Source: Escherichia coli
Lineage (GTDB): Bacteria; Pseudomonadota; Gammaproteobacteria; Enterobacterales; Enterobacteriaceae
Direction: 5' to 3' (one strand)
Assembly: GCA_025544715.1 (NCBI GenBank)
Contig: GCA_025544715.1_4109.3
Length of the DNA stretch: 64,000 nt
Within the stretch, counting starts at the first letter, position 1, and each line of letters opens with the position of its first letter. The notes under the pieces are model-generated. The model saw only the letters and a list, made by a program, of their open reading frames with translations, did not search any database and was not told where the DNA came from. The position numbers and the translations under genes are program-made. Positions 9,954 through 38,360 of this stretch are shown piece by piece.

Positions 9954-9961
9954 ATTACTCC

Positions 9962-10243: not shown

Positions 10244-10260
10244 AAATTTGTGAATCCTTA

Positions 10261-10845
10261 TTATTTTGTAATGTTTAGTTTAGAAACGAAGTATTCTTTG
10301 GCTTCTTCATATGTCATTGAAGTATACATAGGATTCCATTTATCGTCAATATCCATAAGTACTTTAACTTCCATTACATCTTCTGGTGTATAGAATTGCC
10401 ATGTATTGTGATCTGGCTCATAGTTAGGGTCCAGTACAAAAACCGTACCATCCTGACCATAAACTTCTCCATCCTCTAATAGCTCACGGAAGAAATCTTC
10501 TCCAGTAGTTGGGTCTTCGTATGCATTATAAAAACGAAAAACAACATTCTCAACATCAGTTTGGGTAGTACCATCGTCTTCATCATATTCCACCAAACGG
10601 TCCTGATGAAATACTAGGTCAATAGCACCAATGCGAGGTTTATTATGTGGAGTTTTGATTTCTTGCTGGGAATTCAAATCAATACGTTCAGTGCTGATGA
10701 ATACTCCACTAGGGGTAATTTCAATACCAGACACATTTTCTGGTGAATAGTAAGCGTCACACATGTCATCAATGTGCATGTGCTCATGATACACTTCCAT
10801 TTCAGGATTCTGCATCAACAGTGCTGCTAAGTCTTTTGCTTTCAA
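10261..10845 (-). CDS. hypothetical protein, paralog of 11215..11847
   Basis: Shares N-terminal MK..LA.LL.Q.P, TPSG.F and C-terminal DPNTW...SYDEA motifs with the other copy. Confidence 0.5.
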   Translation of the reverse strand: MKAKDLAALLMQNPEMEVYHEHMHIDDMCDAYYSPENVSGIEITPSGVFISTERIDLNSQQEIKTPHNKPRIGAIDLVFHQDRLVEYDEDDGTTQTDVENVVFRFYNAYEDPTTGEDFFRELLEDGEVYGQDGTVFVLDPNYEPDHNTWQFYTPEDVMEVKVLMDIDDKWNPMYTSMTYEEAKEYFVSKLNITK

Positions 10846-11234
10846 TCTTCAATCTCCATAGAATTATCATCATCATAATCATCACTGGTGTACTTAGTTT
10901 TTACCTCAATACCATTCTCATGTAGGTATGTGATAAAACCATTACCATAAACGAATTGATTATAATATGTATTTTCTTCTACATGTGCATCATAATCATC
11001 TTCATAATATGTGGGTATTGTAACATCATGACCGACACTTTGCAAGTACTGGAACAATTCTTTCAGTACTACTTCGATATCACCTTCTTCTGTGCCATAA
11101 CAGTAAGCAGGTTCACCATGAGTGAATTTGAAACCTTTACAGGAAACTGTATAAATATCACTCATTTGTATACCACAATCATCACATTCATGTATAGAAC
11201 AATGCTGGTGGAATTTAATCTTTTTGATTTGCAT
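10842..11234 (-). CDS. hypothetical acidic protein (130 aa)
   Basis: ORF. Confidence 0.45.
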   Translation of the reverse strand: MQIKKIKFHQHCSIHECDDCGIQMSDIYTVSCKGFKFTHGEPAYCYGTEEGDIEVVLKELFQYLQSVGHDVTIPTYYEDDYDAHVEENTYYNQFVYGNGFITYLHENGIEVKTKYTSDDYDDDNSMEIED

Positions 11235-16135: not shown

Positions 16136-18925
16136 TTATAAATCACGGAAACGATTTGGTGTGTTTAAACGGTACATTGAGTATAACCCCAATCCACGCA
16201 TAATCTCACCTGCCCAGAAACCAAAAAACATACCATTATCAGTACCTTCTCTAACTGCTGGACTCCATGATCCATTCATTGGGGAACTTGGATTTACAAT
16301 AACATAATTCTTTTGAAGTTCTAAAACTAAGTTATCAGCGAGTGTCGTTAGACCTTCTATTTTACATCCAGCTAATCCAGCAGCACAAGCCCCAGCTAAC
16401 CACAACCCACACATATGACCTGTAAAGTCCCAATCTGGTCCTTCAACTGTGCCATCTTTATTGAAGATTGTTGGTGAACGACCATCATTATCTTTTTGAA
16501 ATTGAATTAAAAAGTGAATCCAATTCTCACAAAAATCAACAAGATCTGCTGGTGGTTCGATTCCTCTTTCTGCAAGTTCTTGCCATGCTCTTGCAGCCCC
16601 AAAGAATGCACGAGGTTCATACCCGCTCCATGCTTGATCTCCCCAGTGTAGCATTGTGAACGTGTCTGGTTCACCATATTTTAAGTTATCCCAGCGGTTC
16701 CAAACATATGCTTGTGCACATGGACCAACAGTACCGAATTGTTGAGTAAACCATGTTTGAGAATCTTTCATAAAGCTTAACATGTTGCCTAAACGTGTGT
16801 TATCTACTGGTTGGTCTTTAAAACAATATATCACTGGATACTGATAACCAGGATAAGGCAATCCACGCCAACCAGAATACTGATTCGCATACGGGTCAGT
16901 GATGTTAGAAAATGGTATTGTTCCAGGAGTGTAATGCAATGAGTTTAACAAATAATCTTTGATTACACAATCCCCTAACTGTGCAGTATAAGGTGATTCA
17001 CCTGCAATTGTTATTGAGAATGTCATGGTATAGTCATCACCGTCAGCATCCGTATATAATTCTGGAATGTCATTAATACAATACCAATCAATTATTGCAG
17101 CAACACCATCTACTGGGGTTGTATCAGGTAAAATAGTAATATCTTCTAGCTCACTATAAACTGGTGCATCTGGTCTTGGATCAGAACTTGGATGATTTGG
17201 CTGATACCCAGATAAACGTAATGTATCAGAACTTAGTGTGATAGTAGTCCATTCCCCGTGTGTTGCAGGAATCATCCACCACCATCTCCAACCATTATCA
17301 TCTACAATTCGTATATTATAATCATCTTCATATGAACGATATGTGAAAGATTTAACTTCAGACTTATTTGTTGCTAATAACCAAAATCCAATAACAGCAC
17401 CATCATCTTCACCACAAACCAACTGATTAATTGTATCGCGTCTTGTGATTAATATATCAGTACTATATAACATTTCTGATGTAGCTGCACCATAAGGAAC
17501 AACAATTCTACTATCAGCAATTATATAAGGGGAACCATCTGCTTTCTTTTCTCTAACAAATGCACTTAAAGGTGTTAATGAATGTGTGATATTTTGGTCT
17601 TTACTTTCTGGTAAGCCGCAACGATAACGAACAACATCATGGTCATTTTTTGTTTTTGACAATTCCAGTACTGGTTTAAATGATAACGGTTTACCATCAT
17701 CGCACACGCCACCATAGTCAACTAGCAATTTTGAATCAGCATTTACCCTGAACCAAATAGCTTGTTGCTCCATCGTACTCTGTGCACTTTGGTCTTGTCT
17801 GATAGTAATGTATCCTAACGAATTTCTACCAAACTTAGCAATAGCATCACTTGGATAAAAATATTCATAGGAAATACCATCAGTGAATGGTGTGGTTACA
17901 ATTGTACTTTGTCTGAAAAATTTATCTCTGGAGTCGATATCACCATAAGCATAGCATGTGAGTAGTGAACATTTCCAACCCAAATAATGTTTTCTTTCTT
18001 TAGTTATTTTATATAACAAATACGAAGCATCACTGAACCATAATTCTGCATCTGATGCGTTATCAGCAAATTCTAAATTAATTGGAACATGAAGTGGGCG
18101 GTTGTGTTGCATTTCATTTCGTTGAATTATTACACCACCATATTCTACTGGTTGACGATTAGCAAAATTTAATTTATATACACCATTAATTGTTGTATTC
18201 TTTAATTGAACAGTTCCTTTTTCAGATTCGTCAAAACCTTCTGCTAAAATATTACCATCCCAGTCGATTTTTCTACCCATGAAATCAATAACCCAGTCAA
18301 CATCATATTGTTCACCTGGTGTATCCCAATCAACACTACCATCTGGTAATAAAGCTTTTACTGACGCATTTATTTGGTTCCATGCTAAAGCACCTTTGAA
18401 TGCAAATGTCACTTTATCCAAGAACTGACCATAATATGGTGCACCATGTGGTATTTTGCATTGACCATTAGTAAATGTAAATTCTACTCCCTTGAAACCA
18501 CCATGTGTGGGCCAGCCATCATCAGCTAAAGGCCAGTTAGCCAATATAGGTTCTTTTGCATTAACTATCCAGTTACATTGTAGCGGTGTAGGTGGATCTG
18601 GTAATTCACGTCCAGCATAAAAGTACTGATGATATGCGTCCCAATACCACTTTGCCTTATCTAAAAACATTGGATCATTTGTAGCCAGATATGCATAAAT
18701 GTATCCTAAAATTAATAGACTTTGACCTTCTGTTGTCCCGTCACCGTTTGGTTGACCTTCCATTGCAGAATAGTTAATAAAATGGCGGTTGTTCGCCAAA
18801 ACACCCTGATTGTTCACCACATAATGCTGTACTGTTGGGTCTATTGTATCACCAGTATTTCTTTCAATAAATTTGTGATGCCCATAAAGAAGTTGTACAA
18901 TATTATCAATATTATTGTTTAACAT
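16136..18925 (-). CDS. large virion-associated protein (929 aa), possible tailspike/depolymerase
   Basis: Aromatic-rich (W/Y) sequence typical of carbohydrate-active folds; follows tail-fibre-associated ORF; no specific catalytic motif identified. Confidence 0.5.
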   Translation of the reverse strand: MLNNNIDNIVQLLYGHHKFIERNTGDTIDPTVQHYVVNNQGVLANNRHFINYSAMEGQPNGDGTTEGQSLLILGYIYAYLATNDPMFLDKAKWYWDAYHQYFYAGRELPDPPTPLQCNWIVNAKEPILANWPLADDGWPTHGGFKGVEFTFTNGQCKIPHGAPYYGQFLDKVTFAFKGALAWNQINASVKALLPDGSVDWDTPGEQYDVDWVIDFMGRKIDWDGNILAEGFDESEKGTVQLKNTTINGVYKLNFANRQPVEYGGVIIQRNEMQHNRPLHVPINLEFADNASDAELWFSDASYLLYKITKERKHYLGWKCSLLTCYAYGDIDSRDKFFRQSTIVTTPFTDGISYEYFYPSDAIAKFGRNSLGYITIRQDQSAQSTMEQQAIWFRVNADSKLLVDYGGVCDDGKPLSFKPVLELSKTKNDHDVVRYRCGLPESKDQNITHSLTPLSAFVREKKADGSPYIIADSRIVVPYGAATSEMLYSTDILITRRDTINQLVCGEDDGAVIGFWLLATNKSEVKSFTYRSYEDDYNIRIVDDNGWRWWWMIPATHGEWTTITLSSDTLRLSGYQPNHPSSDPRPDAPVYSELEDITILPDTTPVDGVAAIIDWYCINDIPELYTDADGDDYTMTFSITIAGESPYTAQLGDCVIKDYLLNSLHYTPGTIPFSNITDPYANQYSGWRGLPYPGYQYPVIYCFKDQPVDNTRLGNMLSFMKDSQTWFTQQFGTVGPCAQAYVWNRWDNLKYGEPDTFTMLHWGDQAWSGYEPRAFFGAARAWQELAERGIEPPADLVDFCENWIHFLIQFQKDNDGRSPTIFNKDGTVEGPDWDFTGHMCGLWLAGACAAGLAGCKIEGLTTLADNLVLELQKNYVIVNPSSPMNGSWSPAVREGTDNGMFFGFWAGEIMRGLGLYSMYRLNTPNRFRDL

Positions 18926-18926
18926 A

Positions 18927-19463
18927 TCATACTCCTGCTCTAATTAATGCACCGTACCATGTAACTCCTTTATCATATGTTTCTAATGAAATAATATCTT
19001 TTTCACCAATTTCATAAGAAAGAACAACTGGTCTATTATATGACCATTTAACATTTGAACCCCAATTAACGAGGTTAGACCCTGTTTGCTGAGTTAATAG
19101 GATAGTAATTGAATAAACTTCAGTAGGAGCAGCACCAATAGCAATAGTGGTATTTCTGTCAGATAAATTAATATTAAAAACTGTATTACCTGATAGGGGA
19201 TTAATTAAAATATTATTAGAACTCAATACATTATATAACTTGTTACTAGCACTATCATACAATGTTACCCATTCTGTTTCATGATTCTCATTAGTAGCTT
19301 TAGCTTTTATTTTTACATTATTTTCGGAAGAAGTCATTCCAGTCCAGCCAGAAATAATAAAAGAACTGTTTTTATTTGTTCCAAATGATGCAATTACCGA
19401 ATCACTAAGAGAACTATCTTCACCGTCAATAGATCCGAGTACTGACAATGTTAAAACCATCAT
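18927..19463 (-). CDS. tail-fibre-associated protein (178 aa)
   Basis: S/T/N-rich ORF immediately upstream of 929-aa gene; frame closed by TAA just upstream of ATG ATG. Confidence 0.45.
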   Translation of the reverse strand: MMVLTLSVLGSIDGEDSSLSDSVIASFGTNKNSSFIISGWTGMTSSENNVKIKAKATNENHETEWVTLYDSASNKLYNVLSSNNILINPLSGNTVFNINLSDRNTTIAIGAAPTEVYSITILLTQQTGSNLVNWGSNVKWSYNRPVVLSYEIGEKDIISLETYDKGVTWYGALIRAGV

Positions 19464-19569
19464 TTTTAATGTCTACACCAGTTGCACCTGAAAAATTATT
19501 TTGAAATTTAATAACTCCGGTAGTGTGGATATCTGTGAAAATTTGTTGTGCCATACTTAATCCTTGCGT

Positions 19570-19578: not shown

Positions 19579-19631
19579 TTGAGTATTTATCGAGTATAAT
19601 GGCATTTTTAGTACCATTATACTCATGTATA

Positions 19632-21264: not shown

Positions 21265-21774
21265 TTAACCACCATACTTTGACTTGTATGTTTCAAGTGA
21301 TAAAGATATACGATTTTGCTTTTTAATTCTTTCATCAATATCCTTTGAATTCTTCACACTTCGGTATACGTCAGCTAATAAATTATAATCTTCTTTATTT
21401 GAGCTATGCTGTGTCCAACCTATGTCTGTTTTAATACGAACACTTGCTTTATTTGACCAGTAAAAGAAACTGAAACCATTTGACCCATCAAAAATATCAA
21501 AAGTATCTACCCAATCACCATAAGGAAAACTCGTCGGGACTGACTCGTGGTCGATTGTGATATCCGATAAATTGTTTGAACAGTACTTCGCAAAGTGATA
21601 AACAATTGGATCACATTTAGATAATTCATATTTGTATTCAATGATAGTTTTTCTATTAGCATCATTGATAGCATATTCTTTCATCAATGGGCTTTTTTTG
21701 ATGATAAGAGTCCACAGAAACGATTCTAATCCGGTTTCATCAACTTTTTGTTTCTTTTTGAAAAATGAAATCAT
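21265..21774 (-). CDS. hypothetical protein, triplicated family member 1
   Basis: Shares NDANRKTIIEYKYELSK-type motif with 21771..22292 and 22299..22865. Confidence 0.5.
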   Translation of the reverse strand: MISFFKKKQKVDETGLESFLWTLIIKKSPLMKEYAINDANRKTIIEYKYELSKCDPIVYHFAKYCSNNLSDITIDHESVPTSFPYGDWVDTFDIFDGSNGFSFFYWSNKASVRIKTDIGWTQHSSNKEDYNLLADVYRSVKNSKDIDERIKKQNRISLSLETYKSKYGG

Positions 21775-22292
21775 TTATATAAACCCTTAATTTTCTGTCT
21801 ATTATGTATATCATTTTGCTGGATTTTCAATTTAGTAAGGTTGTTTCTTACACCTTCAACTCCACGCATTATTTGTAACATAATTAGTGATTCGTCATAT
21901 GTTAGTACATTGCTATTATTATCGATATATACTTTCACTCCACTTTCAAGATAATCATTTTCTTTGGAGTTAAAGTTTCTAATAGCAAACTTAACTTTAT
22001 TTGTTGTATCACTGAATACATATCGTTCCGCACCGTAGAATGTTTTTCCACGAAATAAACCGCCGTCTTCCCACTTCCAACGGCTAGATTCATAATCATT
22101 AACGTAATCAAGGATTAAAGAAAGTAAAGGATGTTTACTTAATTTATATTTTGCTTCTAACAGGATACGTCTATCATTATCTGTGGTGATAATATCCTTT
22201 AGTGAGTAGCTTTTAGATATAATTTTAAAGATAATTTCATGCCAAATTAATGTACTGTTTTGTTTTCCAACTGATCCAAAAAACATATCCAT
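21771..22292 (-). CDS. hypothetical protein, triplicated family member 2
   Basis: TDNDRRILLEAKYKLSK motif. Confidence 0.5.
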   Translation of the reverse strand: MDMFFGSVGKQNSTLIWHEIIFKIISKSYSLKDIITTDNDRRILLEAKYKLSKHPLLSLILDYVNDYESSRWKWEDGGLFRGKTFYGAERYVFSDTTNKVKFAIRNFNSKENDYLESGVKVYIDNNSNVLTYDESLIMLQIMRGVEGVRNNLTKLKIQQNDIHNRQKIKGLYK

Positions 22293-22298
22293 TCCTCA

Positions 22299-22865
22299 TT
22301 AGTATAAATCAGTAATGTCTTTGTATGCATTAATCTGTTTTTGTTGTAATGAAAGTTCATTGAGTTTAGTTACCATCTTATCTACACCAACACGTGTATA
22401 GAAAATAATTAATGAATCTAAATTGCCTAGAGTAATTCTTGAACTGTAAGTTGAAAGTTTTCTTGCATAAACATAAATTTCTTCTTCACTTGGTAAACGT
22501 TTCTCAATCAGCAAGTTTTCCACACCATTCGGCTCATAATCAATCTCGAACTCTACGCCTATCACTGTGTCTTGAATGCGATCCGTATATGAACCACCGT
22601 AAAAATACTCTCTTGGTTTGGATCTCCAACGAGAACTAAATGGGTCTGTTGCGTATTCTTTTACAAATTTGTAAAAGGACATTTTACTGAGCATATACTT
22701 CATCTCAATTAGTGCTTTGCGGTCATCATCAGTTTTAAACTCTGCTTTGAGCGATGGACTTTTACACAGTAACTTAACTAAATTGTTGTACATCTTTAAT
22801 GTACGTTGTTCTTTCATTTCTTTGATTTTGTGACGTTTTGGTGGTGGTAATAAAGATTTGACCAT
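22299..22865 (-). CDS. hypothetical protein, triplicated family member 3
   Basis: TDDDRKALIEMKYMLSK motif. Confidence 0.5.
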   Translation of the reverse strand: MVKSLLPPPKRHKIKEMKEQRTLKMYNNLVKLLCKSPSLKAEFKTDDDRKALIEMKYMLSKMSFYKFVKEYATDPFSSRWRSKPREYFYGGSYTDRIQDTVIGVEFEIDYEPNGVENLLIEKRLPSEEEIYVYARKLSTYSSRITLGNLDSLIIFYTRVGVDKMVTKLNELSLQQKQINAYKDITDLY

Positions 22866-22902: not shown

Positions 22903-22930
22903 GAAAAGCCCGTCAATAGACGAGCTTTAA
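22903..22930 (-). terminator. imperfect hairpin terminator after tail-fibre operon
   Basis: aaagcccgtc/gacgagcttt stem (one mismatch) then T-rich run on minus strand. Confidence 0.35.
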
Positions 22931-22932
22931 AT

Positions 22933-25662
22933 TTATTTCCAACGTGTACCTGGACCTGATGGTACACCAGTACTGGCAGGTATCGCTGAACCACGTTTCG
23001 TTGTACTTGGGCGATATGTCAAAAAACGAGTCACTTTTTCAGTATCAATCGAAGTAATTCCTGAAGTTCCAGTAACTATCTTACCAATGTAAGTGCTAGT
23101 TAAAGATTCATCAATAGTTTCAGTACTAATAACATATGACGCTTTCTTAGTATTCCTGTTCATTTGTATATACAAATAGAACGTAGTATTAGCTGGATTA
23201 CTTTTTACCGTACTTAAATCTACACTTTGTATAGGTAGTCTGTCGAAAATTCCACCTAAAAACACCGGAACTTCACGTGTAAAGTACACTGAGAATCCTT
23301 GTGCAACGTCTTGTGATACTACCACAATCTTTTCTTTAACGCTACCATTTCCGCTAATTAAACCATCCATTTCAGCAGATGTTGTACCAAAAACGCTGAA
23401 TACAGATTTGGTTTGATAGTCAGAATCTTGAAAATTGTAATATCCAAAACCAACACCAGGAATAACACCATGTTGATATGCTGCACCGAGTTGGATGTAA
23501 CTAGATGACAAAAAACGATTTGATGTTATGACACCATCTACCGTTTTAGCTATCATCATCTTAAATTGTGCATTACCTGGTTGTGAAAATTGATGAACTG
23601 CATCAACACCAATGTAACCGAATCCTGAATATTTAGCAACTGTTAGACCAGTACAACGTTTCATATATGCTTCAGTAATAATTCCTGTAACAGAACTAAG
23701 TGTCTCATATCTAGTACTTACCAATGAAGCTGAAGTTATGTTAGTTCCAGATAATACAACATCAACTTCGGCATAAATTGCATAACCTTGGTTATTGTTA
23801 AGATTATATGCTGAAACTACTGCAATGGATTTAGAAAAAGTATTATCAGGTACATAATATAATACAATTTGTCCAGATAGTGTACCAACAATGCCAGAGT
23901 TTCCTAGATTAGCAAAAATATCTTGTTTTAATGATTCTAATACCGTTGGTTCTATTGTATATGTTTCATCAAATTCTAAAGTATCTGGGTTTAATAATCC
24001 ACCACTTGTTTTATATACACCTTCAATGAATGATGTTCCATAGCATCTAACACTACCATCGGTATCAACAAGAGAAATCATAGCAGTGTATGTAAAATCA
24101 TCACCTATTTGTTTACGATTAGATTGTGGTGCAAAACCATTTAATGTAGTATTATTTTGAACTGAGTTATATTGATATGTTGGTTGTGAGCCTATTTCAG
24201 AAAAAACAGTATTATTATAATTATATGTTACATCATCATACGTACCAGAACATGCTAATAATATTTTTCTATTATCGATGAAACGTACACCTAATAGGTT
24301 TGCACCAACAGCACTACCAAAAACTGGTAAAACGTTTGCATTTATAACGTTACTTGCGGATCTAGTACTAGCAACCCATGAATCAAACGGTGTGCCACTA
24401 ACCTTATATCGTTGTAGACCATAAAATTCAGTTGAACTCCATCTAAATTTAGATGCAAATACTAAACCATCTTTGGTTTGACATAAACCACCTGCGTTTC
24501 CTAATACACCAGCAGCAGTTGTCCCAGTGAAGTTGACCATATCGATTTCAAATGGGTTAGAAACTTGAAATCCATTATTATATGAAACTGTAGCAGGAGC
24601 ACGAGCAGAACCATCTAGTGACATAGATTTTGAGTTTATATTATAAACAAAACTGATACCAGTACCATACACTGTTGAAATATATAAAGGTGTAACCATT
24701 CTATGTGTTGGGTATAAAGTTACACGTATTTTGGATAAATCAGTACTAACGTTTGCTTGTATATTAAAGTCTGTATAATCCGAAAATTCTACACGTGAGA
24801 CTGGTGATGTAACTTCGAATAATGAATCCGAGCTAGTACCAACACTATATAATCTATCAAACACTCTTATGTTATTAGATGCAGAATAACTTGTATTTCT
24901 AACAGTTTGCCCTGATAATCCAGTAACTTTTGTTAATGATGCCATTGAGCTTGCTTTCACATCACTTAGCTCTACTGTATAAATTGAAAGTGCTAATCCT
25001 AAATTAGAAACACTTTTATCTTTACACCAAATATATACTTTTGTTCCAACAATATGAGTATATATAGGCATATCATTACCAAAAGAAGTACTTGGTACTT
25101 TAGCATGAATATGTGATACTTCGTTGAATGTACCATTAGTTATAGTAAAAATATAATTATCTTCTGTACTTAAACATCCAAGCATTTCATAACCATTAGA
25201 GCCAATAAAATACTTAATATTCTCTGTACTACTCATAATTGAAGGTTTATACATTGAATTGGTTGAAATAACACTTTCTTGTGAAATCATGGTTATATTT
25301 CTGATTTCTCGTATAAATGAATAATAAAAACCTTTAGTACTGCCATTCGTCCCACTACGTAGAACAACAGCAGTACCATCATCTTCAATAATAGTCGGTT
25401 GAACAACTTGATCACTTGACATAGGTGTAGCACCTTCATACGACCCACTTACGTTTAATGGTAAGTAATCCATTTCTCCTACACGTGATATAGGCAACAT
25501 ATCTAAAATACTTTGAACTTCAGAACGCTTGTATATTGGATATTGAACAATTCCAGTATTTGCATTCGGTGAGGTTCCATTGAAAGTACGCATAGCGTAC
25601 CTTCCTCCAATTGCTAAGTTCCCAAGGATCTCGGCACTTCCTATAATTCGTTTTGATGACAT
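22933..25662 (-). CDS. tail fibre protein (909 aa)
   Basis: S/T/N/G-rich beta-type sequence; N-terminal MPIS..G..YLP..VSG and DGT.VLLRSGTNGS shared with 26278..28974; C-terminal domain shared with both neighbours; start re-assigned to MSSKR with AAGGAA RBS (track 25752). Confidence 0.6.
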   Translation of the reverse strand: MSSKRIIGSAEILGNLAIGGRYAMRTFNGTSPNANTGIVQYPIYKRSEVQSILDMLPISRVGEMDYLPLNVSGSYEGATPMSSDQVVQPTIIEDDGTAVVLRSGTNGSTKGFYYSFIREIRNITMISQESVISTNSMYKPSIMSSTENIKYFIGSNGYEMLGCLSTEDNYIFTITNGTFNEVSHIHAKVPSTSFGNDMPIYTHIVGTKVYIWCKDKSVSNLGLALSIYTVELSDVKASSMASLTKVTGLSGQTVRNTSYSASNNIRVFDRLYSVGTSSDSLFEVTSPVSRVEFSDYTDFNIQANVSTDLSKIRVTLYPTHRMVTPLYISTVYGTGISFVYNINSKSMSLDGSARAPATVSYNNGFQVSNPFEIDMVNFTGTTAAGVLGNAGGLCQTKDGLVFASKFRWSSTEFYGLQRYKVSGTPFDSWVASTRSASNVINANVLPVFGSAVGANLLGVRFIDNRKILLACSGTYDDVTYNYNNTVFSEIGSQPTYQYNSVQNNTTLNGFAPQSNRKQIGDDFTYTAMISLVDTDGSVRCYGTSFIEGVYKTSGGLLNPDTLEFDETYTIEPTVLESLKQDIFANLGNSGIVGTLSGQIVLYYVPDNTFSKSIAVVSAYNLNNNQGYAIYAEVDVVLSGTNITSASLVSTRYETLSSVTGIITEAYMKRCTGLTVAKYSGFGYIGVDAVHQFSQPGNAQFKMMIAKTVDGVITSNRFLSSSYIQLGAAYQHGVIPGVGFGYYNFQDSDYQTKSVFSVFGTTSAEMDGLISGNGSVKEKIVVVSQDVAQGFSVYFTREVPVFLGGIFDRLPIQSVDLSTVKSNPANTTFYLYIQMNRNTKKASYVISTETIDESLTSTYIGKIVTGTSGITSIDTEKVTRFLTYRPSTTKRGSAIPASTGVPSGPGTRWK

Positions 25663-25678
25663 CTTTCTTTTCCTTAAT

Positions 25679-26266
25679 TTACCAACCAATTGTACCAGTT
25701 TCTGATGGTTTCCCAGTACTGACTGGGAATGAAGAACCTTTTTGTGTAACACTAGGTCTATATGTACTAAATCTGGATACTTTATTAATGTTTATATTTG
25801 TAATGCCACTTGTACCAACGGTAAGAGTTCCAATAAACATTATAATTTCAGATTCTTGTATTTGTGTTGGTGATACTTTATATATTGGTTCACCGAGAAC
25901 TAACGTTGCATATACATATTGTGTTTGTGTCCCAGATGAAACTGTTGAAGCAAAAATAGAAACTGCTGGAAATTTATAAAGATAACCACCAATAAATGAT
26001 GGTATTTCTCTATTAAATGTAAGACTATAACCAGACGAAGTAATATTTAGACTTGCATCATCATACAATTCACCGTATTGTGTGAGTGGTAATCCATTTA
26101 CAATAAAATTAACTTCATCTTTAGTAATAGAGGGGAATGTACATTCCCCATTTGAATTTGTTGGGTAATAAGTCATATTATTACCTAATACACCAAGTCC
26201 AGTACTTTTACCCTGTACTGTAACTTGTTGCATTGCCTTAAGGTCTGCTCTTATTTTATATGCCAT
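25679..26266 (-). CDS. tail fibre distal-domain paralog (195 aa)
   Basis: Standalone copy of the C-terminal roughly 130-aa domain of both long fibre genes, ending ...TYRPS...KGSSFPVSTGKPSETGTIGW. Confidence 0.55.
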   Translation of the reverse strand: MAYKIRADLKAMQQVTVQGKSTGLGVLGNNMTYYPTNSNGECTFPSITKDEVNFIVNGLPLTQYGELYDDASLNITSSGYSLTFNREIPSFIGGYLYKFPAVSIFASTVSSGTQTQYVYATLVLGEPIYKVSPTQIQESEIIMFIGTLTVGTSGITNININKVSRFSTYRPSVTQKGSSFPVSTGKPSETGTIGW

Positions 26267-26277
26267 TATGTAATCCT

Positions 26278-28974
26278 TTACCAGTTTATGGTTCCTGTTT
26301 GTGATGGTAGACCGTAGCTAACTGGGAACGATGAACCTGCTGATTCAAGTGAAGCACCAAATATATCTAAACGTGAACGTTTTTGTATATTAATTGTTTC
26401 GATTTGAATTGCATTAGTTTGAATTGTACCTATCCAAAAAATATTATATGCAGTTGTTCCTGTTTCAGAAATAACATCAGTAGTTATGTAATAGTTTGCC
26501 AATCCTTGGTCCAATTTAACATATACATAAAATGTTGTATTTGCTGGATTAGACTTAATAGTTCTCAAATCAATATTTGAAACTGGTAGTGAAAATGACT
26601 TACCTGAAAGAATAACTGGTGTTTCTTCTGTAAAATATACAATAAACCCTTGAGCAACGTCCTGTGATACTACGTTAATTGGGCTACCTTGTGCAGTCCA
26701 GTTATTATAGTCTGTAATCGTTGTCCCATATTTTTTGAATGTCATTTTATTTGAGTAATCCATTGGTTCAAAAATTCCAAAACCAATACCAGGTAACGCT
26801 GCTGGTTGACTTCCCTGTTCATAACTGGCATGAGAACCAGTAATTATAAAACTTGTAAATTGTGCAGTTGATTTAGTTACATATGCTCTAAATTGATGAG
26901 TTGCAGTATTACCTATTGTTGGATGTGATAATGGGTCAGAACCACCAATGAAGTAGAATGAACCTCCATCATATATTGTCAAACCAACAGAAGAAGATGC
27001 AATCGAACCATTTCCAGTTGGTGTAAAGTTATCACCATACGTATTCTCAAGTACTAAACGCTTGAATGTAATAGATGTAATATTACCAACTCTAGTATTG
27101 ACGTTAACTTCAGCAATTCTAATATAGTTTCTATAATCATTAGTAATTGTACTCAACATAACAAAAGCTGGAATGTCTGTTTGTTGTGGAACAAATAGTG
27201 TCATATCACGGTATGCTTGTGGTGATAAATTCCAATCACTTAGAACTTTAGCATATTCAGTATTTCTAAAATTGTCCAGTACTGATTGTGTAACACTTAT
27301 AATGCCTGTACCATTTAAGTTTTTATCATAGGATAATGATTGTGAATAACGTTGCCCAACCATAAAAATACCACCATTGGTTGTAACAGTTGACCCAGAA
27401 ATACTACTAATGAAAATTCTATTATTTGCATTATCATCAACGTTAGCACGTTCAACTGTAGGTTCATAACCTTGTATTGTTCCTAAAGATAATGATTTAA
27501 ATGTAAAATTAGGAGTACTTTTATGAACTGCATATGATGGTCTAAATCCACCACTACCTGATGCACGTGAATATTGTTTAGTACTGTTATCTGGTAGTAA
27601 TTCTACACCATTAATAAATGAACCAACCGCTGAACCAAAAGACGGGCGAACTATACCACCTTTGAAGTCAGTAGAAAGTACAGCACGCACATTCAGCATA
27701 CTATAAACTATTTGAATAGGAAACTTAGCTTTTTGCATAAGCAATGGTTCTGCTAAGTTTGGACATGCAGTACAAAATGCTTCACCTGAATTTAAATAAA
27801 AATATGAACTGTAAATATTCCTTGCATTTGCATGGTTATACAATGGATCGTTATTTAAAACGTTTCCAGTAGGAACTAATGCTGAACCGGTATCAGTAAT
27901 AACTAATGGTGCTTGGTATGAACCAATATCATTACCTGCATCTAATGTACATTGTTTAGTACTCATGTTGAATACAAAACTGTAACTATGTTGTGGTCGT
28001 GTATTATAAGTTGCCATTGTGAACCAAGCATCACCATTCATTCTAAAGCGGAAGTTCTGTGTACCTGGCTGCTGTGCAACACATAAATCGATTGATGTCA
28101 TGTAAATCCCAATACCACGTAGATTTTTTGGAACATACACATAAGGTTTATCAGCGATATTTGTTGATGTTACCTGATTAGTTATAACCATATTATTTTG
28201 TGCAGAATAAGTTGTGTTATAAAATGTTTTAGTAGTCCATCCAGTAACACGAGTTGCGGTATAAGTACCATTACTGATATTATAAACCACTTTAACTACA
28301 ACTAATTGTAATTGGTTATTTGCATTAAGTACGTTAAAAACATATATAGAACCATCTTCTGCCATCATAGCATATTCAATACCACCTTCAGGTGATATAT
28401 CTGCTTGGTTAACGAAAAAACCAGTATGCAATTTATCATCTAATGTACCATTAGTAATTGATATGAACAAACCATTAGTACTGTTAGAAGTGTCTACATA
28501 TCTACCGAGTAAAATATTTGGATCAGTATTGTATAAGCCAATTGCGACTCGATTAGAACCGAAAAAACCAGGCTTGTATTGACGACTGGTGTTAATTGTA
28601 CGGCTCATGTCATCAACTGATAATGCGTTAGCCAAATATGAATAAAATAATCCCTCAACACTACCGTTTGTTCCACTACGTAAAAGTACTAGTGTACCAT
28701 CGTTTTCTAATAAAATTTTATTTCTACGTTGGGTCTGGTTTTCGGATGCACCATTGAAATCTCCAGAAACACCAGCAGGTAGATAGTTTTGTGAACCATA
28801 ATGGGAGATTGGCATCATGCTTACTATATCTAGTACTTCATCTCTGGAATACGTGTCTAATTCCATGTTACCATTTGAATCAAACACTTGTTCATTTATT
28901 CCTTGAATTGTTCTTTTACCATTAACTGTCACATTATGTGTGACATCTAAGCCACCATATATTTTCTTTGACAT
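26278..28974 (-). CDS. tail fibre protein (898 aa)
   Basis: Paralog of 22933..25662 at both termini; preceded by TATAAATA late promoter. Confidence 0.6.
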   Translation of the reverse strand: MSKKIYGGLDVTHNVTVNGKRTIQGINEQVFDSNGNMELDTYSRDEVLDIVSMMPISHYGSQNYLPAGVSGDFNGASENQTQRRNKILLENDGTLVLLRSGTNGSVEGLFYSYLANALSVDDMSRTINTSRQYKPGFFGSNRVAIGLYNTDPNILLGRYVDTSNSTNGLFISITNGTLDDKLHTGFFVNQADISPEGGIEYAMMAEDGSIYVFNVLNANNQLQLVVVKVVYNISNGTYTATRVTGWTTKTFYNTTYSAQNNMVITNQVTSTNIADKPYVYVPKNLRGIGIYMTSIDLCVAQQPGTQNFRFRMNGDAWFTMATYNTRPQHSYSFVFNMSTKQCTLDAGNDIGSYQAPLVITDTGSALVPTGNVLNNDPLYNHANARNIYSSYFYLNSGEAFCTACPNLAEPLLMQKAKFPIQIVYSMLNVRAVLSTDFKGGIVRPSFGSAVGSFINGVELLPDNSTKQYSRASGSGGFRPSYAVHKSTPNFTFKSLSLGTIQGYEPTVERANVDDNANNRIFISSISGSTVTTNGGIFMVGQRYSQSLSYDKNLNGTGIISVTQSVLDNFRNTEYAKVLSDWNLSPQAYRDMTLFVPQQTDIPAFVMLSTITNDYRNYIRIAEVNVNTRVGNITSITFKRLVLENTYGDNFTPTGNGSIASSSVGLTIYDGGSFYFIGGSDPLSHPTIGNTATHQFRAYVTKSTAQFTSFIITGSHASYEQGSQPAALPGIGFGIFEPMDYSNKMTFKKYGTTITDYNNWTAQGSPINVVSQDVAQGFIVYFTEETPVILSGKSFSLPVSNIDLRTIKSNPANTTFYVYVKLDQGLANYYITTDVISETGTTAYNIFWIGTIQTNAIQIETINIQKRSRLDIFGASLESAGSSFPVSYGLPSQTGTINW

Positions 28975-29008
28975 TGTATATCCCTTATAAATTAGATATT
29001 AGTTAATG

Positions 29009-29016
29009 TATTTATA
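29009..29016 (-). promoter_or_regulatory. T4-type late promoter TATAAATA
   Basis: Exact TATAAATA on minus strand 35 nt upstream of the tail-fibre ATG at 28974, just after the nrdG terminator. Confidence 0.5.
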
Positions 29017-29024
29017 TACATAAC

Positions 29025-29045
29025 AAAAAAGCACCCAACGGGTGC
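29025..29045 (-). terminator. rho-independent terminator after nrdG
   Basis: gcaccc/gggtgc stem, 3-nt loop, T6 on minus strand. Confidence 0.55.
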
Positions 29046-29050
29046 TTATG

Positions 29051-29521
29051 TTAAAAATCTTTATTTTTATATAGTATTCTTTGATTATTTGAACCACGGA
29101 AAGGTAATTTTAAATTCTTTTCGGACTCGATAAACTTACCATCAACTAATACATCTAAGTACTGAAGTATATCTTTAGAATGATTTTTCATAATCTCATC
29201 TAAAGTATACCCACTCCAGCACCAAATAGTTTTACTAGGATAAGTTTCTTTAACTACTTTGCATAGATTTAAAACTTCATCTATATTCTTTTTCATTAAT
29301 GGATCGCCGCCTAGAAGTGATAAACCACTAACATATGGTTTTTTTAGTTCCTGTAGTATAATCTCAACTGTTTCAGTACTGAACTCTTGACCACTTCTGT
29401 AGTCCCATGCTTCTTCATTGAAGCAACCATCACATCCGTGCGAACACCCACTAACAAATAAAGAGCAGCGAACACCCTCTCCATTTACTAAATCATCCTT
29501 GATTATCGTCTGGTAATTCAT
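29051..29521 (-). CDS. nrdG: anaerobic ribonucleotide reductase activating protein
   Basis: Radical-SAM-like CSHGCDGC cluster; 156 aa; close to T4 NrdG in length and N-terminus. Confidence 0.85.
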   Translation of the reverse strand: MNYQTIIKDDLVNGEGVRCSLFVSGCSHGCDGCFNEEAWDYRSGQEFSTETVEIILQELKKPYVSGLSLLGGDPLMKKNIDEVLNLCKVVKETYPSKTIWCWSGYTLDEIMKNHSKDILQYLDVLVDGKFIESEKNLKLPFRGSNNQRILYKNKDF

Positions 29522-29825
29522 CTAATATTGCACTCACTATTTCGACAAGAACATCGCCGTGACATGATTTGGGTTTACAGAAACAACCAAGGCGTTTCCC
29601 TGCGAGTTCAAGTAATTCATCAATCTTAACTTCTCCACAAGAAATACGTTCAATAATGTATTCTCTGAATTTTTCAATTGATTCTTCTCTTGTACTAACA
29701 ATGAATTCGGCTTTGGTTTGTTTATCTTTAATATGGGTAAATGGGTTTCCCCATTTAGACCCACGCCCAATATACACATCATACGGTTCTTTGTATTTGT
29801 TAACCACAATTGGCTTTAAATCCAT
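29493..29825 (-). CDS. conserved hypothetical protein (110 aa)
   Basis: YIGRGSKWGNPF ... CFCKPKSCHGDVL motif pair; lies between nrdD and nrdG. Confidence 0.45.
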   Translation of the reverse strand: MDLKPIVVNKYKEPYDVYIGRGSKWGNPFTHIKDKQTKAEFIVSTREESIEKFREYIIERISCGEVKIDELLELAGKRLGCFCKPKSCHGDVLVEIVSAILDELPDDNQG

Positions 29826-29833
29826 AATTTACC

Positions 29834-31639
29834 TTATTTGTGCTGAATACGCTCACAACACTCTTGTTGTTTGCCTTTATTGAATCCACGCGAAGAAGGA
29901 TTACCCAAGTAACCAGAAACACGACGAATCACTGAGATTGTCTTCTCATTACGATTATCACATACCGGACAGTGGAAACCATGTTTATCTACACTGAACT
30001 CACCCTGGAAGCCACATTCATAACAATGGTCAACGGGTTGGTTAATACCAAAATATGGTATCTTCGTGTAAGCATAGTTAACTAATGTTTCAAGTGCTTG
30101 AATGTTGTTTGCTAAGTTTGGAGATTCAACATAACTGATGTTTCCACCGTTACTTAGGTAAGCAAAGCCTTCTTCATAACTCCATTTATCAAATGGAGAA
30201 CTTTCTACCCATACTGGTTGATGAAAGGAATTTGTGATGTAATCACGTTTTAGTACTGACGGATATTTTGCTTCAATACAACGTGCAAATTTATAACAAA
30301 GTGACTCTGCTGGAGTTCCATATAGACTAAAAGCTATATTACTCTCTTTTTTGAACTCATCACATTTTACTTTCATATAATTCAGTACTGACATACAAAA
30401 CTCCTTACTGATAGAACCAGTGAGGATTTCTGAACATTCAACAAGTCCAACATAACCAATACTAATACTAGCATAACCATTGTAAAATAGCTTGTCAATG
30501 GTTTCTTCTGCACCTAAACGTGCTAATGCACCTTCCATGAACAAAATTGGATTTTGCTTTGCTTTAGTGCCTTTTAAACGCTCTACGCGGTTCATCTGAG
30601 CACGATATGCAATATTCATATGCTCGTCTATCTTATCAAAAAACTCTCCGTCAGAAGCACTCTCAAGAGCAATTAGAGGTAAATTGATAGAAACCACACC
30701 TAAATTGAAACGACCGTTGTATTGTTCATTTCCATTAGAATCTTCCCATTTTCCTAAGAATGAACGACAGCCCATCGGTGTTACCGCAGTACTACTACTT
30801 CCAGTCACTTTGTGATTTAATGGTACGGAAACAAAGTCAGGGTAGATTCGTTTTGATGCACAACGCATAGCTAACTGTTTAAGGTCATAATTACTATCAT
30901 TGGTATTCATGTTTATACCATCTTGTAAAAAGAAAATTACTTTAGGAAACACTGGAGTAATCTTATCTTTACCTAAACCATTCTCATGAACTTTTAAGTA
31001 CTGTTCAGTGATTAATTTACCAAATTTAGAAGTGTTAAGACCTAAACTAAGAGAAATAAATGCAGCTTGACCATTAGTACTAATCATTGAATTAGTTTGG
31101 TAAAGTAATGTTTGGCAGCCATCGTATACTTCTTTTCGTAGTTCTTCTTCAATGAATTCATCACTTAGATTATATTTCTTTTGTTTTTCTAACAGCTTAT
31201 CCCATGACTTTTGAACGTAAGGTTCTAATCCGACATCAATGTGAGCCAAAGATTGACCACCATACTGGGAACTGGCAACAGCTTGGACAATTTGTGTCAG
31301 TACTGTACATGCTACACTAAAACTCTTTGGTTCTTCAATTTTAGCACAACCAATGGTGAATCCATTTTTTAGCATATCTGGGTAGTTAACTAAGCAACAG
31401 TTGGTTAATGGGCTGATATAGTAGTCTAAATCATGGATATGACCATAACCATCATTATGCCACTGCATTAGCTCATTTGGAATAACATCTTGTGAATAAT
31501 GCTTAGATAGGATACCTGCAAGTAAATCCCTGTGTGTATTGACGCATTTCGCATCTTTGTTCGCATTTTCGTTTGTAAGATCAGTATTGCTCTGATTGAG
31601 GAAATTCGTTACGTCAGTATATAATTTATCTAATTGCAT
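29834..31639 (-). CDS. nrdD: anaerobic ribonucleoside-triphosphate reductase (class III)
   Basis: Alignable along its length to T4 NrdD, including LTNENANKD, NCCLV, the C-terminal zinc ribbon CYECG...CPVCD and glycyl-radical tail RVSGYLG; start set to ATG with AAGGAA RBS (track 31702). Confidence 0.9.
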   Translation of the reverse strand: MQLDKLYTDVTNFLNQSNTDLTNENANKDAKCVNTHRDLLAGILSKHYSQDVIPNELMQWHNDGYGHIHDLDYYISPLTNCCLVNYPDMLKNGFTIGCAKIEEPKSFSVACTVLTQIVQAVASSQYGGQSLAHIDVGLEPYVQKSWDKLLEKQKKYNLSDEFIEEELRKEVYDGCQTLLYQTNSMISTNGQAAFISLSLGLNTSKFGKLITEQYLKVHENGLGKDKITPVFPKVIFFLQDGINMNTNDSNYDLKQLAMRCASKRIYPDFVSVPLNHKVTGSSSTAVTPMGCRSFLGKWEDSNGNEQYNGRFNLGVVSINLPLIALESASDGEFFDKIDEHMNIAYRAQMNRVERLKGTKAKQNPILFMEGALARLGAEETIDKLFYNGYASISIGYVGLVECSEILTGSISKEFCMSVLNYMKVKCDEFKKESNIAFSLYGTPAESLCYKFARCIEAKYPSVLKRDYITNSFHQPVWVESSPFDKWSYEEGFAYLSNGGNISYVESPNLANNIQALETLVNYAYTKIPYFGINQPVDHCYECGFQGEFSVDKHGFHCPVCDNRNEKTISVIRRVSGYLGNPSSRGFNKGKQQECCERIQHK

Positions 31640-31774
31640 TGTACATTCCTTGTATTTTGAAATCATCTGGGGGTGAAGATATTTAATATCACCAGACAAC
31701 ATTATAGCGTCAGAACAGGTTATTTCTCTTGACCTATATCAAGGAAAAGTCACATTGGTTTTTATTTGCACAAA

Positions 31775-35879: not shown

Positions 35880-36437
35880 TTAGCTCCCTTTGTATTGATG
35901 TTTACGTTTAGTACTGTATTTCCAGCCAGTACTGTGTCTTGTTCTGATATCGTCCCAATACGATGGTAATGAACGCATCTTACGTCTTCCACGTATATCA
36001 GGTTCCCCCTCATCCTTCAGTACTGCACAAGCCATACGACGCTCTTGTTGAGTCTTAGGACGCTTGTATCGGGAGTGGTTATGTTTGTACATATACGAAC
36101 GCTTATGTCGCCATTCCGTATCACGAGCTTTGCGTTTATGTTCCCAGTACTCATTATAGAGTATCATGTATTCACCCATAAGTAAATCAGGAGATACAAG
36201 TAATCCTTTTTCAGTACAAAGATAATAACCCACAAACTCTTCTGGGAACATTTCGTAATAGAAACGGTTCTTCCAAAAAGTTTCACGATTCTTTTTGTTG
36301 AATTCTGCTAAATCAAATTTCATCTTACTGTGGAAACGATCTATCCCTTGATGGTCAGCAATGTATTGAAGTAGATCGTCTACAATCTCAACTTTACCAG
36401 AATCGTGATACAACGTAAATGTTTGGTCAAAAAACAT
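35880..36437 (-). CDS. hypothetical basic protein (185 aa)
   Basis: ORF; GGAG RBS. Confidence 0.45.
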   Translation of the reverse strand: MFFDQTFTLYHDSGKVEIVDDLLQYIADHQGIDRFHSKMKFDLAEFNKKNRETFWKNRFYYEMFPEEFVGYYLCTEKGLLVSPDLLMGEYMILYNEYWEHKRKARDTEWRHKRSYMYKHNHSRYKRPKTQQERRMACAVLKDEGEPDIRGRRKMRSLPSYWDDIRTRHSTGWKYSTKRKHQYKGS

Positions 36438-36558: not shown

Positions 36559-36663
36559 ACGAAAAACTGAAATAACACATGGAGTTCTTTTTAATTTAAT
36601 AAAAAGTATTATTATTCTTATAAAAGTATTTATTAAGAACTCCACAATATGGCTTCAAATGAA

Positions 36664-36920: not shown

Positions 36921-38360
36921 TTACATATTTTCTTCAGCAAATTCAGCCAGTGGTGAACGAACAACACCTTCTAGTTCGATGACACGACAACCTGCCCAGT
37001 CTTTAAACTTCTCAGTTACATAAGTCAAACCACTGTTAACTGGACTAATAAACTTACTGTCAATCTGACTCAAGTTACCCATAATTACTACTTTACAGTT
37101 TAACCCTGCTCGTGTCAAGATGGTTTTTGCTTGTGCAGGTGTAATGTTTTGGAATTCATCAACTACTAGAATAGTGTTGGTGAATGAACGTCCACGTACA
37201 AAGTTTAGTGCTTTAAATTGAATAACATTACGTTTCATAATCTCTTCAATACTACCTTGTGGGTTAGCATCATCTTTATGAAGAAACTCTAACGCATCAA
37301 TCGCGGCTCCACAGAATGGAATCACTTTTTCTGCTTCTGAACCTGGCAAGAAACCAATATCTTCAAACTGTGAGTCTTGAGTTTTAGAGAAGATGATTCG
37401 GTCGTATTTACGTTTTTCCAGTACTAATTCCAATGCAGTAGCAATCGTAATTAGTGTTTTACCAGTACCAGCAGAACCTAGCAGTACTGTTAGATGTACA
37501 TCAGGATCGAGAATACTGTTGATAGCGAGTGCTTGTTGGATATTCTTTGCTTTAATATCCCATACTTTAGCACGTAAAGCCACTGATTGTCCAATGTCTT
37601 GGAATACCAAAATATCTTCTGGTGTTAGTGTTCCATCATCTTCCTCAATTGCTGATTGTCCTTCGTACACAAATAATACGTCAGCATCATCATATAGGTA
37701 ATCACCGATGCATAGATTTTGTGGAAGCAGATGTTCAATCAAGCTTTTAGAAATGTAATGATACAAACGACGACCAACTTGTTCGGATTGAATATTAGTA
37801 TTGGTTAAGTTGCTGTATACTTCCCAAAAATTGATTTCCAGATGGTGTTGACCAATGTGAATCAAATCACTATCACCAATAACAATATCATGGCGATAAT
37901 CTTGTACCTCGACACCATAACTTAGTGCTTTGATACGCATGTTGATATCACGAGTTACCAGTACTGATTCTGTTGCTAAAGCTACCAGAATGATTTTATC
38001 ATCAGGTACAGTACTTTTGAGAAGGGTTTGAACTTTCTCTTCTGTACCTTTAGTACGAATTAGTGCCTCAGCTTCTTCGTTTGTAATAACAAACAATTTG
38101 CTATCAGGATTCATATTGGTATGAACATCAGCAATATTAACACCAGTACTACTAATCTCGTCATGTGATGCATCTGCAATAATTGCTTCAATGTTACGAA
38201 TAGCAACACGTGCATCGCGTGAAACATCTACATTACGACTCTTAATCGAATCTAATTCTTCCAGTACTGTAAATGGTAGAATGATTGCAGCACCATCAAA
38301 AGCAATAGATGCATTAGGGTCAGATAGTAGTACGTTTGTGTCAATTGTATATTTTTTCAT
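36921..38360 (-). CDS. phoH: PhoH-like ATPase with N-terminal PIN domain
   Basis: N-terminal PIN-like IDTNVLL...D, Walker A GSAGTGKT, 479 aa. Confidence 0.8.
   Translation of the reverse strand: MKKYTIDTNVLLSDPNASIAFDGAAIILPFTVLEELDSIKSRNVDVSRDARVAIRNIEAIIADASHDEISSTGVNIADVHTNMNPDSKLFVITNEEAEALIRTKGTEEKVQTLLKSTVPDDKIILVALATESVLVTRDINMRIKALSYGVEVQDYRHDIVIGDSDLIHIGQHHLEINFWEVYSNLTNTNIQSEQVGRRLYHYISKSLIEHLLPQNLCIGDYLYDDADVLFVYEGQSAIEEDDGTLTPEDILVFQDIGQSVALRAKVWDIKAKNIQQALAINSILDPDVHLTVLLGSAGTGKTLITIATALELVLEKRKYDRIIFSKTQDSQFEDIGFLPGSEAEKVIPFCGAAIDALEFLHKDDANPQGSIEEIMKRNVIQFKALNFVRGRSFTNTILVVDEFQNITPAQAKTILTRAGLNCKVVIMGNLSQIDSKFISPVNSGLTYVTEKFKDWAGCRVIELEGVVRSPLAEFAEENM

Follow-up and report, generated by a model that had tools for sequence, protein, structure and literature searches.

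A cluster of three paralogous genes, here designated A, B and C, was analysed in a 64,000-nucleotide (nt) stretch of contig GCA_025544715.1_4109.3 from Escherichia coli assembly GCA_025544715.1; the whole of this stretch is referred to as the window. A and C encode proteins of ~900 amino acids (aa) in which a predicted beta-propeller head separates two parts of a shared module, and B encodes a protein of 195 aa that has lost this head by deletion. The 6-kb region containing these genes exhibited 96.6% nucleotide identity to Escherichia phages JP4, UB and PBECO4 and 94.6% to phage 121Q, all jumbo myoviruses of the genus Asteriusvirus, and hence the window phage is an Asteriusvirus-like (i.e. 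PBECO4/121Q-like) jumbo coliphage. All three genes are annotated as 'hypothetical protein' in the records of these four phages. The minus strand carries every gene in this part of the window, and no further family member was found in its 64 kb. The genes and their parts are located as follows:

26278–28974, minus strand: gene A, 898 aa, headed paralog at position 1; matches phrog_3573 (expectation value, E, of 1.1e-272)
28720–28974, minus strand: A residues 1–85, N-terminal part of the shared module, with a stalk (1–43, low confidence), a helix (44–53) and the conserved motif PISHYG..YLPAGVSG
26680–28719, minus strand: A residues 86–765, predicted all-beta 'head' of beta-propeller fold, probably two propellers; variable and mosaic
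26281–26679, minus strand: A residues 766–898, C-terminal part of the shared module, with a predicted beta-sandwich (766–869) and a conserved tail ending in an invariant tryptophan (Trp)
25679–26266, minus strand: gene B, 195 aa, headless paralog at position 2, with an N-terminal part (1–76), sandwich (77–160) and conserved tail (161–195); matches phrog_26864 (E = 1.5e-114)
22933–25662, minus strand: gene C, 909 aa, headed paralog at position 3; matches phrog_3573 (E = 1.9e-266)
22939–23304, minus strand: C residues 787–908, shared C-terminal part

An initial annotation of this stretch, made from the letters alone, had described two fibre genes of ~900 aa with common N-terminal motifs and a common C-terminal domain. 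The sharing was confirmed but the homology is not confined to the ends, A and C being homologous over their full length (27% identity end to end, E = 2e-62). Similarity among the three C-termini, also proposed at that stage, was significant in pairwise alignments: residues 77–195 of B exhibited 43% identity to the C-terminus of C (E = 4e-24) and 36% to that of A (E = 5e-17). The proteins end in ...FPVSYGLPSQTGTINW (A), ...FPVSTGKPSETGTIGW (B) and ...IPASTGVPSGPGTRWK (C). C was assigned the ATG at 25662 as its start. This codon follows AAGGAAAAG, and translation from it gives an N-terminus that aligns with that of A; a mechanically produced list of open reading frames (ORFs) puts the start at a GTG at 25752. 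The PHROG matches of A and C to phrog_3573 and of B to phrog_26864 are full-length, neither family having an assigned function. A, B and C had no match in Pfam or NCBIfam, including none to tail-fibre, collar or chaperone families.

Gene B had been characterised as encoding essentially only a distal domain. The C-terminal domain is present, but an N-terminal module (residues 1–76) has been kept as well and it is the middle that is missing. Residues 1–60 of B match the N-terminus of A (E = 5e-7), and the N-terminal part (1–76) matches CBB_148 of Pectobacterium phage CBB (E = 9e-10). In a joint alignment, residues 1–76 of B correspond to residues 1–70 of A and residues 77–195 to residues 774–898, with ~700 residues cleanly missing (i.e. 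the step from 76 to 77 in B spans 70 to 774 in A). As both ends of B align with the large proteins, B consists of an N-terminal plus a C-terminal module from which the middle, a ~700-residue head, has gone by clean in-frame deletion. The best large match for both ends of B was the middle paralog, CBB_148, and a tree built on the shared columns grouped B with CBB_148 (bootstrap 96). A second tree on shared columns resolved three position-specific groups with bootstraps of 62, 90 and 77, the middle group containing B having the value of 90. By position and tree, B is assigned as the ortholog of the full-length middle paralog of CBB-like phages.

The proposal that the 195-aa ORF is a genuine gene was supported by several features. 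B has its own Shine-Dalgarno sequence, its ribosome-binding site lying 11 nt past the stop codon of A, and its orthologs hold a length of 190–202 aa down to 46% identity. B is under purifying selection, with ratios of non-synonymous to synonymous substitution (dN/dS) of 0.05–0.2 in comparisons with unsaturated synonymous sites, similar to those of A and C. Generation of B by read-through or frameshifting from A or C was rejected because A, B and C occupy three different frames and have separate ribosome-binding sites.

The order of nrdD, nrdG and then three family genes is kept across relatives. The Rak2-like jumbo-phage triads (i.e. 121Q gp499/500/501, phAPEC6 gp323c, CBB_147/148/149, GAP32_143-145 and fHe-Yen9-04 g137-139) are orthologs of A–C, belonging to phrog_3573 and phrog_26864, and agree with the window in their genes, in synteny after nrdD-nrdG and in the late-promoter core described below; their members are labelled hypothetical, structural or 'minor tail' in the records, without analysis. 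All three genes are large in CBB (CBB_147/148/149, 902, 916 and 916 aa) and in Yersinia phage fHe-Yen9-04 (g137-139). A full-length middle gene is present in the lineages of CBB, GAP32 and Yen9-04, and the 195-aa form in the Asteriusvirus-like lineage, with 195–196 aa in 121Q, WPEC3, A4 and Salmonella phage 7t3. Two records of these triads contain annotation differences: the annotated start of 121Q gene 501 lies 23 codons downstream of its likely ATG, and in phAPEC6 (MK817115.1, 5709–9042) the B and C orthologs are intact and unannotated, the sole annotated ORF inside C being of 114 bp.

Loss of the head was found to recur. A locus search with the B alignment recovered eight close IMG/VR loci, every one of which contained exactly three family genes in a row, in the patterns large-mini-large (n = 4), large-large-large (n = 1), mini-large-568 aa (n = 2) and mini-large-large (n = 1). 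Three genes in a row also occur in CBB, Yen9-04, 7t3, A4 and Xanthomonas phage Xoo-sp14 and, counting weaker matches, in Deimos-Minion and Goslar. The mini genes at position 1 group with the A-type proteins (bootstrap 62) and bear the A-type C-terminal signature; as these minis are A-type, head loss was independent at positions 1 and 2 and, in part, at position 3. In two uncultured IMG/VR contigs (9370–11076 in each) the position-3 paralog is of 568 aa, with the shared N- and C-terminal parts intact around an insert of ~375 aa, an arrangement suggestive of an intermediate with one propeller, between headed and headless forms. In Xoo-sp14 a mini of 241 aa lies beside two proteins of ~975 aa that share its N-terminal 110 and C-terminal 120 residues, Deimos-Minion has gp18 (420 aa, with the module uninterrupted) beside gp19 and gp20, and Goslar has gp28 and, more weakly, gp27 beside gp26. 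The family is present in at least 171 cultured jumbo-phage records, nearly everywhere annotated as hypothetical. In a tblastn census of an evenly spaced 60 of the 179 phage records matching the module, three places per record, and never more, were matched in the best 29 of the 60.

B could alternatively be a non-structural assembly factor, i.e. a chaperone or template for the trimerisation of A and C that is then released, like the tail-fibre assembly proteins. Such a role would suit a small protein encoded between two fibre-type genes of the same late operon and lacking proteomic evidence of presence in virions (B being unannotated in phAPEC6), but B matches no chaperone or Tfa family in Pfam, NCBIfam or the PHROGs of known function and keeps the conserved terminal tail and N-terminal stalk of the large virion proteins. 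The full-length, headed ortholog of B in CBB-like phages and the headless state of another position elsewhere fit a structural subunit better, and a released assembly factor is considered very improbable.

AlphaFold monomer models were generated, that of A being run with 42 homologs. The model of A (predicted local distance difference test [pLDDT] score of 86.5 and predicted template modelling score of 0.80; low confidence at ends 1–29 and 873–898) comprises a helix at 44–53, an all-beta region at ~86–765 whose fold is a beta-propeller, and a beta-sandwich at 766–869. In the model of B, the core (70–160) had block-mean pLDDT values of 74–95, with a helix at 49–58 and low-confidence ends. The shared module is predicted to adopt the 'shoulder' fold, in which a helix packs against a beta-sandwich, known from p2-type receptor-binding proteins and from TssK. 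Structures of the p2 receptor-binding protein and of TssK have the shoulder as the part that forms the trimer and docks on a baseplate component (Dit/BppU arms, TssFG), and not as the receptor-binding tip; the shoulder relatives found for B are, as far as is known, homotrimers. The likeness of fold covers the receptor-binding protein ORF18 of lactococcal phage p2 (PDB 2WZP), the type VI secretion baseplate protein TssK, the phage 1358 receptor-binding protein, BPP-1 Mtd and HFTV1 gp42. The family differs from the p2/TssK shoulder in having no detectable sequence similarity to it and in bearing an extra conserved tail of ~30 residues, ending in Trp, after the sandwich. Searches of all PDB sequences with phmmer and profiles gave no meaningful match, only beta-lactamase inhibitor protein II at E ~0.5, and the matches of a fold search in BFVD were all jumbo-phage proteins either uncharacterised or labelled 'virion structural'. 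As with B, SPP1 gp22 (PDB 2XC8) is a stand-alone protein with a p2-shoulder-like fold; it differs in having no sequence relationship to B, in coming from a Gram-positive siphophage and in not being a deletion derivative of a headed neighbour. To our knowledge, SPP1 gp22 has no known function.

The p2-type order of shoulder, neck and head was not found in A and C, where the head (86–765 in A) lies between the shoulder helix and the sandwich and not after the shoulder, nor in B, which is headless. A search of 1.84 billion representatives with the B profile matched 422 proteins, and architectures were read from the best 150 of these 422. Lengths were bimodal (~890–1000+ aa versus ~165–245 aa). 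In the long proteins the domain is at the C-terminal end and is often matched in two pieces, and the short proteins, of which there are many among the best 150, give an unbroken match to B residues ~44/56–195. From these alignments the N- and C-terminal parts are predicted to form a single module into which, in A and C, the head is inserted between helix and sandwich. A classical shoulder-then-head order is present in three distant relatives: in P0200 the module is followed by an immunoglobulin-like Big_2 domain and then a Pfam GP38 tail-fibre adhesin domain (E = 2.4e-16), and in P0100 and P0101 by other C-terminal domains. In relatives of ~230 aa the module is at the C-terminal end behind a fibre-like N-terminus, and the N-termini of small relatives match phrog_8147, 'tail fiber protein'.

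These data bear on the model of the initial annotation, in which the C-terminal domain was the distal receptor tip, duplicated for host range and exchanged by tip swapping, with B as a separate tip. Along A, across 33 orthologs, the ends exhibited the highest identities (0.65–0.79) and the middle the lowest (0.39–0.55). Relative to 121Q, the propeller part of A exhibited 85–91% nucleotide identity and a synonymous divergence (dS) of 0.48, gene B a dS of 0.15 and most of C (25300–22900) 98–100% nucleotide identity; the pattern of identity to phAPEC6 was different. Because of this mosaic identity to 121Q, the block with a different history is taken to be the head of A and not the C-terminal domain. 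The mosaic pattern indicates recent recombination among Asteriusviruses, with putative breakpoints inside the A-B-C cluster. The tip model could draw on this mosaicism across the region, on the position of the module behind a fibre-like N-terminus in the ~230-aa relatives and on the conserved terminal tail, which could be a binding element. A host-range tip would be expected to vary, but conservation along the protein is highest in this domain; it is predicted to fold as the docking shoulder known from receptor-binding proteins and TssK, further domains, including the GP38 adhesin, follow the module in P0200, P0100 and P0101, and B retains the N-terminal module. Nor did comparison with related phages reveal exchanged C-termini, since the three lineages are of old origin and keep their positional orthology in at least three genera, and the block that varies is the propeller middle of A. 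The tip model is therefore regarded as the least probable of the explanations considered.

The head is more plausibly the host-facing part. The model of A contains a beta-propeller, the host-facing fold of gp131-like proteins, and by its fold the head probably binds or cleaves sugar. R99, Y111, H183, S448, S494 and R509 are invariant residues of the propeller part. Sialidase Asp-boxes were sought in the head of A and were not found, nor was any other family signature of sialidase/glycoside-hydrolase propellers, and a test for a duplicated propeller detected no similarity between the two halves of this head. The label of 'fibre' was upheld only in part: membership of the tail-fibre/receptor-binding class is supported, but a classical fibre is not, the all-beta model of A being globular with propellers and having no long fibrous shaft.

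A, B and C constitute one putative late transcription unit, consisting of a terminator, a predicted ATAAATA-type late promoter, the three genes and a second terminator, with the control elements located as follows:

29029–29047, minus strand: intrinsic terminator hairpin AAGCACCC-GTT-GGGTGCTT with a T-run, after nrdG, from a terminator scan; upstream edge of the unit
29009–29016, minus strand: T4-type late-promoter-like motif TATAAATA, with the core ATAAATAC at 29008–29015
22905–22928, minus strand: intrinsic terminator after C, from a terminator scan; downstream edge of the unit

An exact copy of TATAAATA had been noted 35 nt upstream of the first gene, and this was borne out: the motif follows directly on the nrdG hairpin and its last base lies 35 nt ahead of the start codon of A (ATG at 28974). 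It is the sole coding-strand copy within the window, where TATAAATA is depleted (three copies in total against 12.9 expected from shuffles). The core ATAAATAC occurs three times against 7.95 expected, with all three copies on the coding (minus) strand. This scarcity fits counter-selection of a functional late-promoter signal. In six relatives (121Q, WPEC3, 7t3, A4, CBB and Yen9-04), the hairpin after nrdG is kept and the core is present right after it, 39–42 nt before the first gene. ATAAATA has been predicted as the late promoter of structural genes in CBB, for which a gp55-like sigma factor is also reported (PMC5259590). The locus thus has the elements of a T4-type late unit, i.e. a TATAAATA-like element before a virion gene, its conservation in relatives and a gp55-like sigma factor in the phage group (CBB). 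Within the unit, A, B and C are tightly spaced, the ATG of C being 16 nt after the stop of B. A sigma-70-like near-consensus promoter (TTGACG-17-TATAAT, 22916–22888) overlaps the terminator of C.

The second ATAAATAC copy, at 19583–19590 (minus), is behind another hairpin and before a small ORF starting at 19554 (~42 aa, 121Q gp507), which is followed on the minus strand by two genes called 'tail fiber' in 121Q, at 18927–19463 (178 aa) and 16136–18925 (929 aa). Counterparts of the ~42-aa ORF and the 929-aa gene, gp315c (4.66 kDa) and gp314c (105 kDa), are in the phAPEC6 virion proteome (PMC7247149). The segment 16136–19640 forms another late-promoter island, its virion genes being surrounded by genes for nucleotide metabolism and other non-structural functions. 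The third copy, at 36626–36633 (minus), is upstream of a 185-aa ORF (35880–36437) and downstream of a PhoH-like gene (36921–38360); the PhoH-like gp341c of phAPEC6 is present in its virion proteome (PMC7247149). Two of the three ATAAATAC copies precede clusters with a virion protein detected by mass spectrometry in phAPEC6 orthologs.

Direct evidence for presence in the virion comes from phAPEC6: mass spectrometry of its purified virions identified the A ortholog, gp323c, from 4 unique peptides at a coverage of 5.6% (PMC7247149). Links to tail structures were obtained from phiKZ-like phages. Family profiles match Deimos-Minion gp19/gp20, Goslar gp26, EL gp114/115 and SPN3US gp168, from a point equivalent to position ~52 of A to the end of the sandwich, and these phiKZ-like homologs are in baseplate gene clusters. 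Deimos-Minion gp19 and EL gp114/115 begin with ~260 residues that share homology with the phiKZ gp131 N-domain (E = 1e-16 to 1e-19), a gp131-like anchor placed upstream of their A-homologous part. This N-domain anchors the peripheral baseplate fibres, which are mixed fibres formed by gp131 paralogs, in the virion structure of phiKZ (PMC13250141). A simple assignment of the family as phiKZ gp131-like was rejected, the profiles missing gp131-135 (E > 0.3), gp145 and gp146, and the link running through the fusion proteins. SPN3US gp168 is essential and of low abundance and, with gp169 and gp170, is absent from tailless mutant particles; the three proteins are similar in abundance and were considered baseplate or tail-fibre candidates ('paralog family C') by the authors (PMC5694885). 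In a comparison of gp168 and gp169, hidden Markov models found the shared module only in gp168. Both phiKZ gp131-135 and SPN3US gp168/169/170 resemble A–C as paralogous, low-copy, tail-associated clusters with a conserved attachment part and a beta-propeller, and phiKZ gp132 is a 110-aa mini-paralog beside full-length fibre genes, comparable to B beside A and C. The match of gp132 to gp131 covers only the repeat region 214–291 (E = 5e-15). The proposal of late-expressed virion proteins of the tail-fibre/receptor-binding class is accordingly supported by gp323c in virions, the gp131-anchor fusions, SPN3US gp168 and the N-termini matching a tail-fiber PHROG.

A different location in the virion was considered, in which these proteins are the 'hairy' sheath or capsid appendages of phAPEC6 and CBB and not baseplate-peripheral fibres. 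Both phages bear hair-like sheath/capsid fibres of unassigned protein (PMC7247149, PMC5259590), and the A-B-C genes are not part of the main block of structural genes. However, GAP32, which in the view of the CBB authors may lack whiskers (PMC5259590), has the triad too, as do phiKZ-like phages, for which no description of such hairs was found. The predicted proteins are globular and not 119-nm filaments, the low peptide count suggests a low copy number, and the phiKZ-like homologs have a baseplate-fibre anchor as well as their location in baseplate clusters. Assignment to the hairs is hence improbable.

The favoured explanation, with a probability of roughly 0.72, is that the cluster is one late unit of three old paralogs built on a shared module, with propeller heads in A and C and B made headless by deletion. 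It draws on the homology, deletion, orthology, selection, fold similarity and late-promoter context described above and on the virion presence of the A ortholog. In each paralog the module would run from a short stalk at the N-terminus through a helix and a C-terminal beta-sandwich to the ~30-residue conserved tail ending in Trp. The module would serve for attachment, its helix and sandwich resembling the shoulder that trimerises and docks on the baseplate in p2 and TssK. In A and C, the ~700-residue propeller head between helix and sandwich would be exposed to the host, and B is the position-2 paralog that lost its head in-frame and persisted as a bare module under purifying selection. As the module is kept in each paralog even after head loss, it probably has a necessary structural role of its own. 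The module is likely to be an oligomerisation and docking platform, with all three modules structurally required and the three chains in one assembly.

Several observations weigh against this explanation. Proteomic support is limited to the A ortholog and is thin (the 4 peptides and 5.6% coverage noted above); B and C could not have been identified within the phAPEC6 proteome because both are unannotated in that phage, so that neither has such support. CBB_147-149 are not in the CBB mass-spectrometry table, although CBB_148/149 are labelled 'structural protein' in GenBank, and for this reason CBB_148/149 were not used as proteomic evidence. No virion structure includes an assigned member of the family; its homologs are neither located nor mentioned in the preprint on Goslar, the atlas of phiKZ or the fEgEco12 paper, and the phiKZ (PMC13250141) and Goslar cryo-electron microscopy structures leave fibres unresolved and much of the peripheral baseplate unmodelled. 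The shoulder of the p2 receptor-binding protein and TssK is N-terminal with the head after it, an order that neither the inserted heads of A and C nor the headless B reproduce. Some phiKZ-like phages have only one or two detectable members, although detection falls with divergence and is clearly incomplete.

How the chains assemble is a narrower question. The preferred form, proposed tentatively and at odds somewhat short of even, is an obligate A:B:C heterotrimer that would be held by the shared module and would carry two heads in the window phage. The main alternative, which is judged rather unlikely, is that three homotrimers (A3, B3 and C3) occupy separate sites, on the baseplate, the fibre network or the sheath 'hairs', with B3 as a headless plug or adaptor needed for assembly. 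Homotrimers would accord with the structural relatives of the shoulder, which are homotrimers as far as is known, and with the conserved C-terminal signature of each paralog, which could specify a different site. The N-terminal region of Deimos-Minion gp20 is moreover shorter than those of gp18 and gp19, a poor fit to an in-register mixed trimer. A headless homotrimer would, however, have no obvious host-facing function, yet headless members have been kept at least twice independently, at different positions, with the count held at three. The single operon with tight spacing favours equimolar synthesis, the SPN3US family-C paralogs are similar in abundance (with the caveat that the module was found in gp168 and not gp169) and the gp131 paralogs of phiKZ form mixed fibres.

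If the A:B:C heterotrimer exists, the number of heads per trimer would have been tuned by evolution, with three in CBB-like phages, two in the window phage, one full plus one truncated head in certain uncultured relatives and possibly a single head in Goslar. Head loss in individual subunits would then fix, at the genetic level, both the valency and the asymmetry of a receptor-binding protein, and this would recur across jumbo phages. Host recognition by jumbo phages is poorly understood, and the domain map, in which a conserved split shoulder-like module would attach and the inserted propellers vary, is usable for structure fitting, host-range prediction and engineering. The conserved triad combined with repeated, position-independent head loss provides a clear comparative signal that the attachment module of each paralog is needed in its own right. 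The new elements are the split shoulder-like module with inserted propellers and the triad with a headless member; the phage type is known and no new kind of system is implied.

Additional observations were made on the genes flanking the unit. A DUF4326 protein of 110 aa (29493–29825, minus; Pfam E = 6e-24) is encoded between nrdD (29834–31702) and nrdG (29051–29521), its gene overlapping the start of nrdG by 29 nt. Phages A4 and 7t3 have an extra small 'pyruvate formate-lyase' gene (glycyl-radical spare-part-like) near nrdD/nrdG, a gene that the window is without. Directly downstream of C are three tandem small paralogs of 188, 173 and 169 aa (21265–22865, minus). These had no Pfam match and are related to one another with pairwise E-values of 9e-16 and 9e-5, sharing the common motif ..TD.DR..L.E.KY.LSK..

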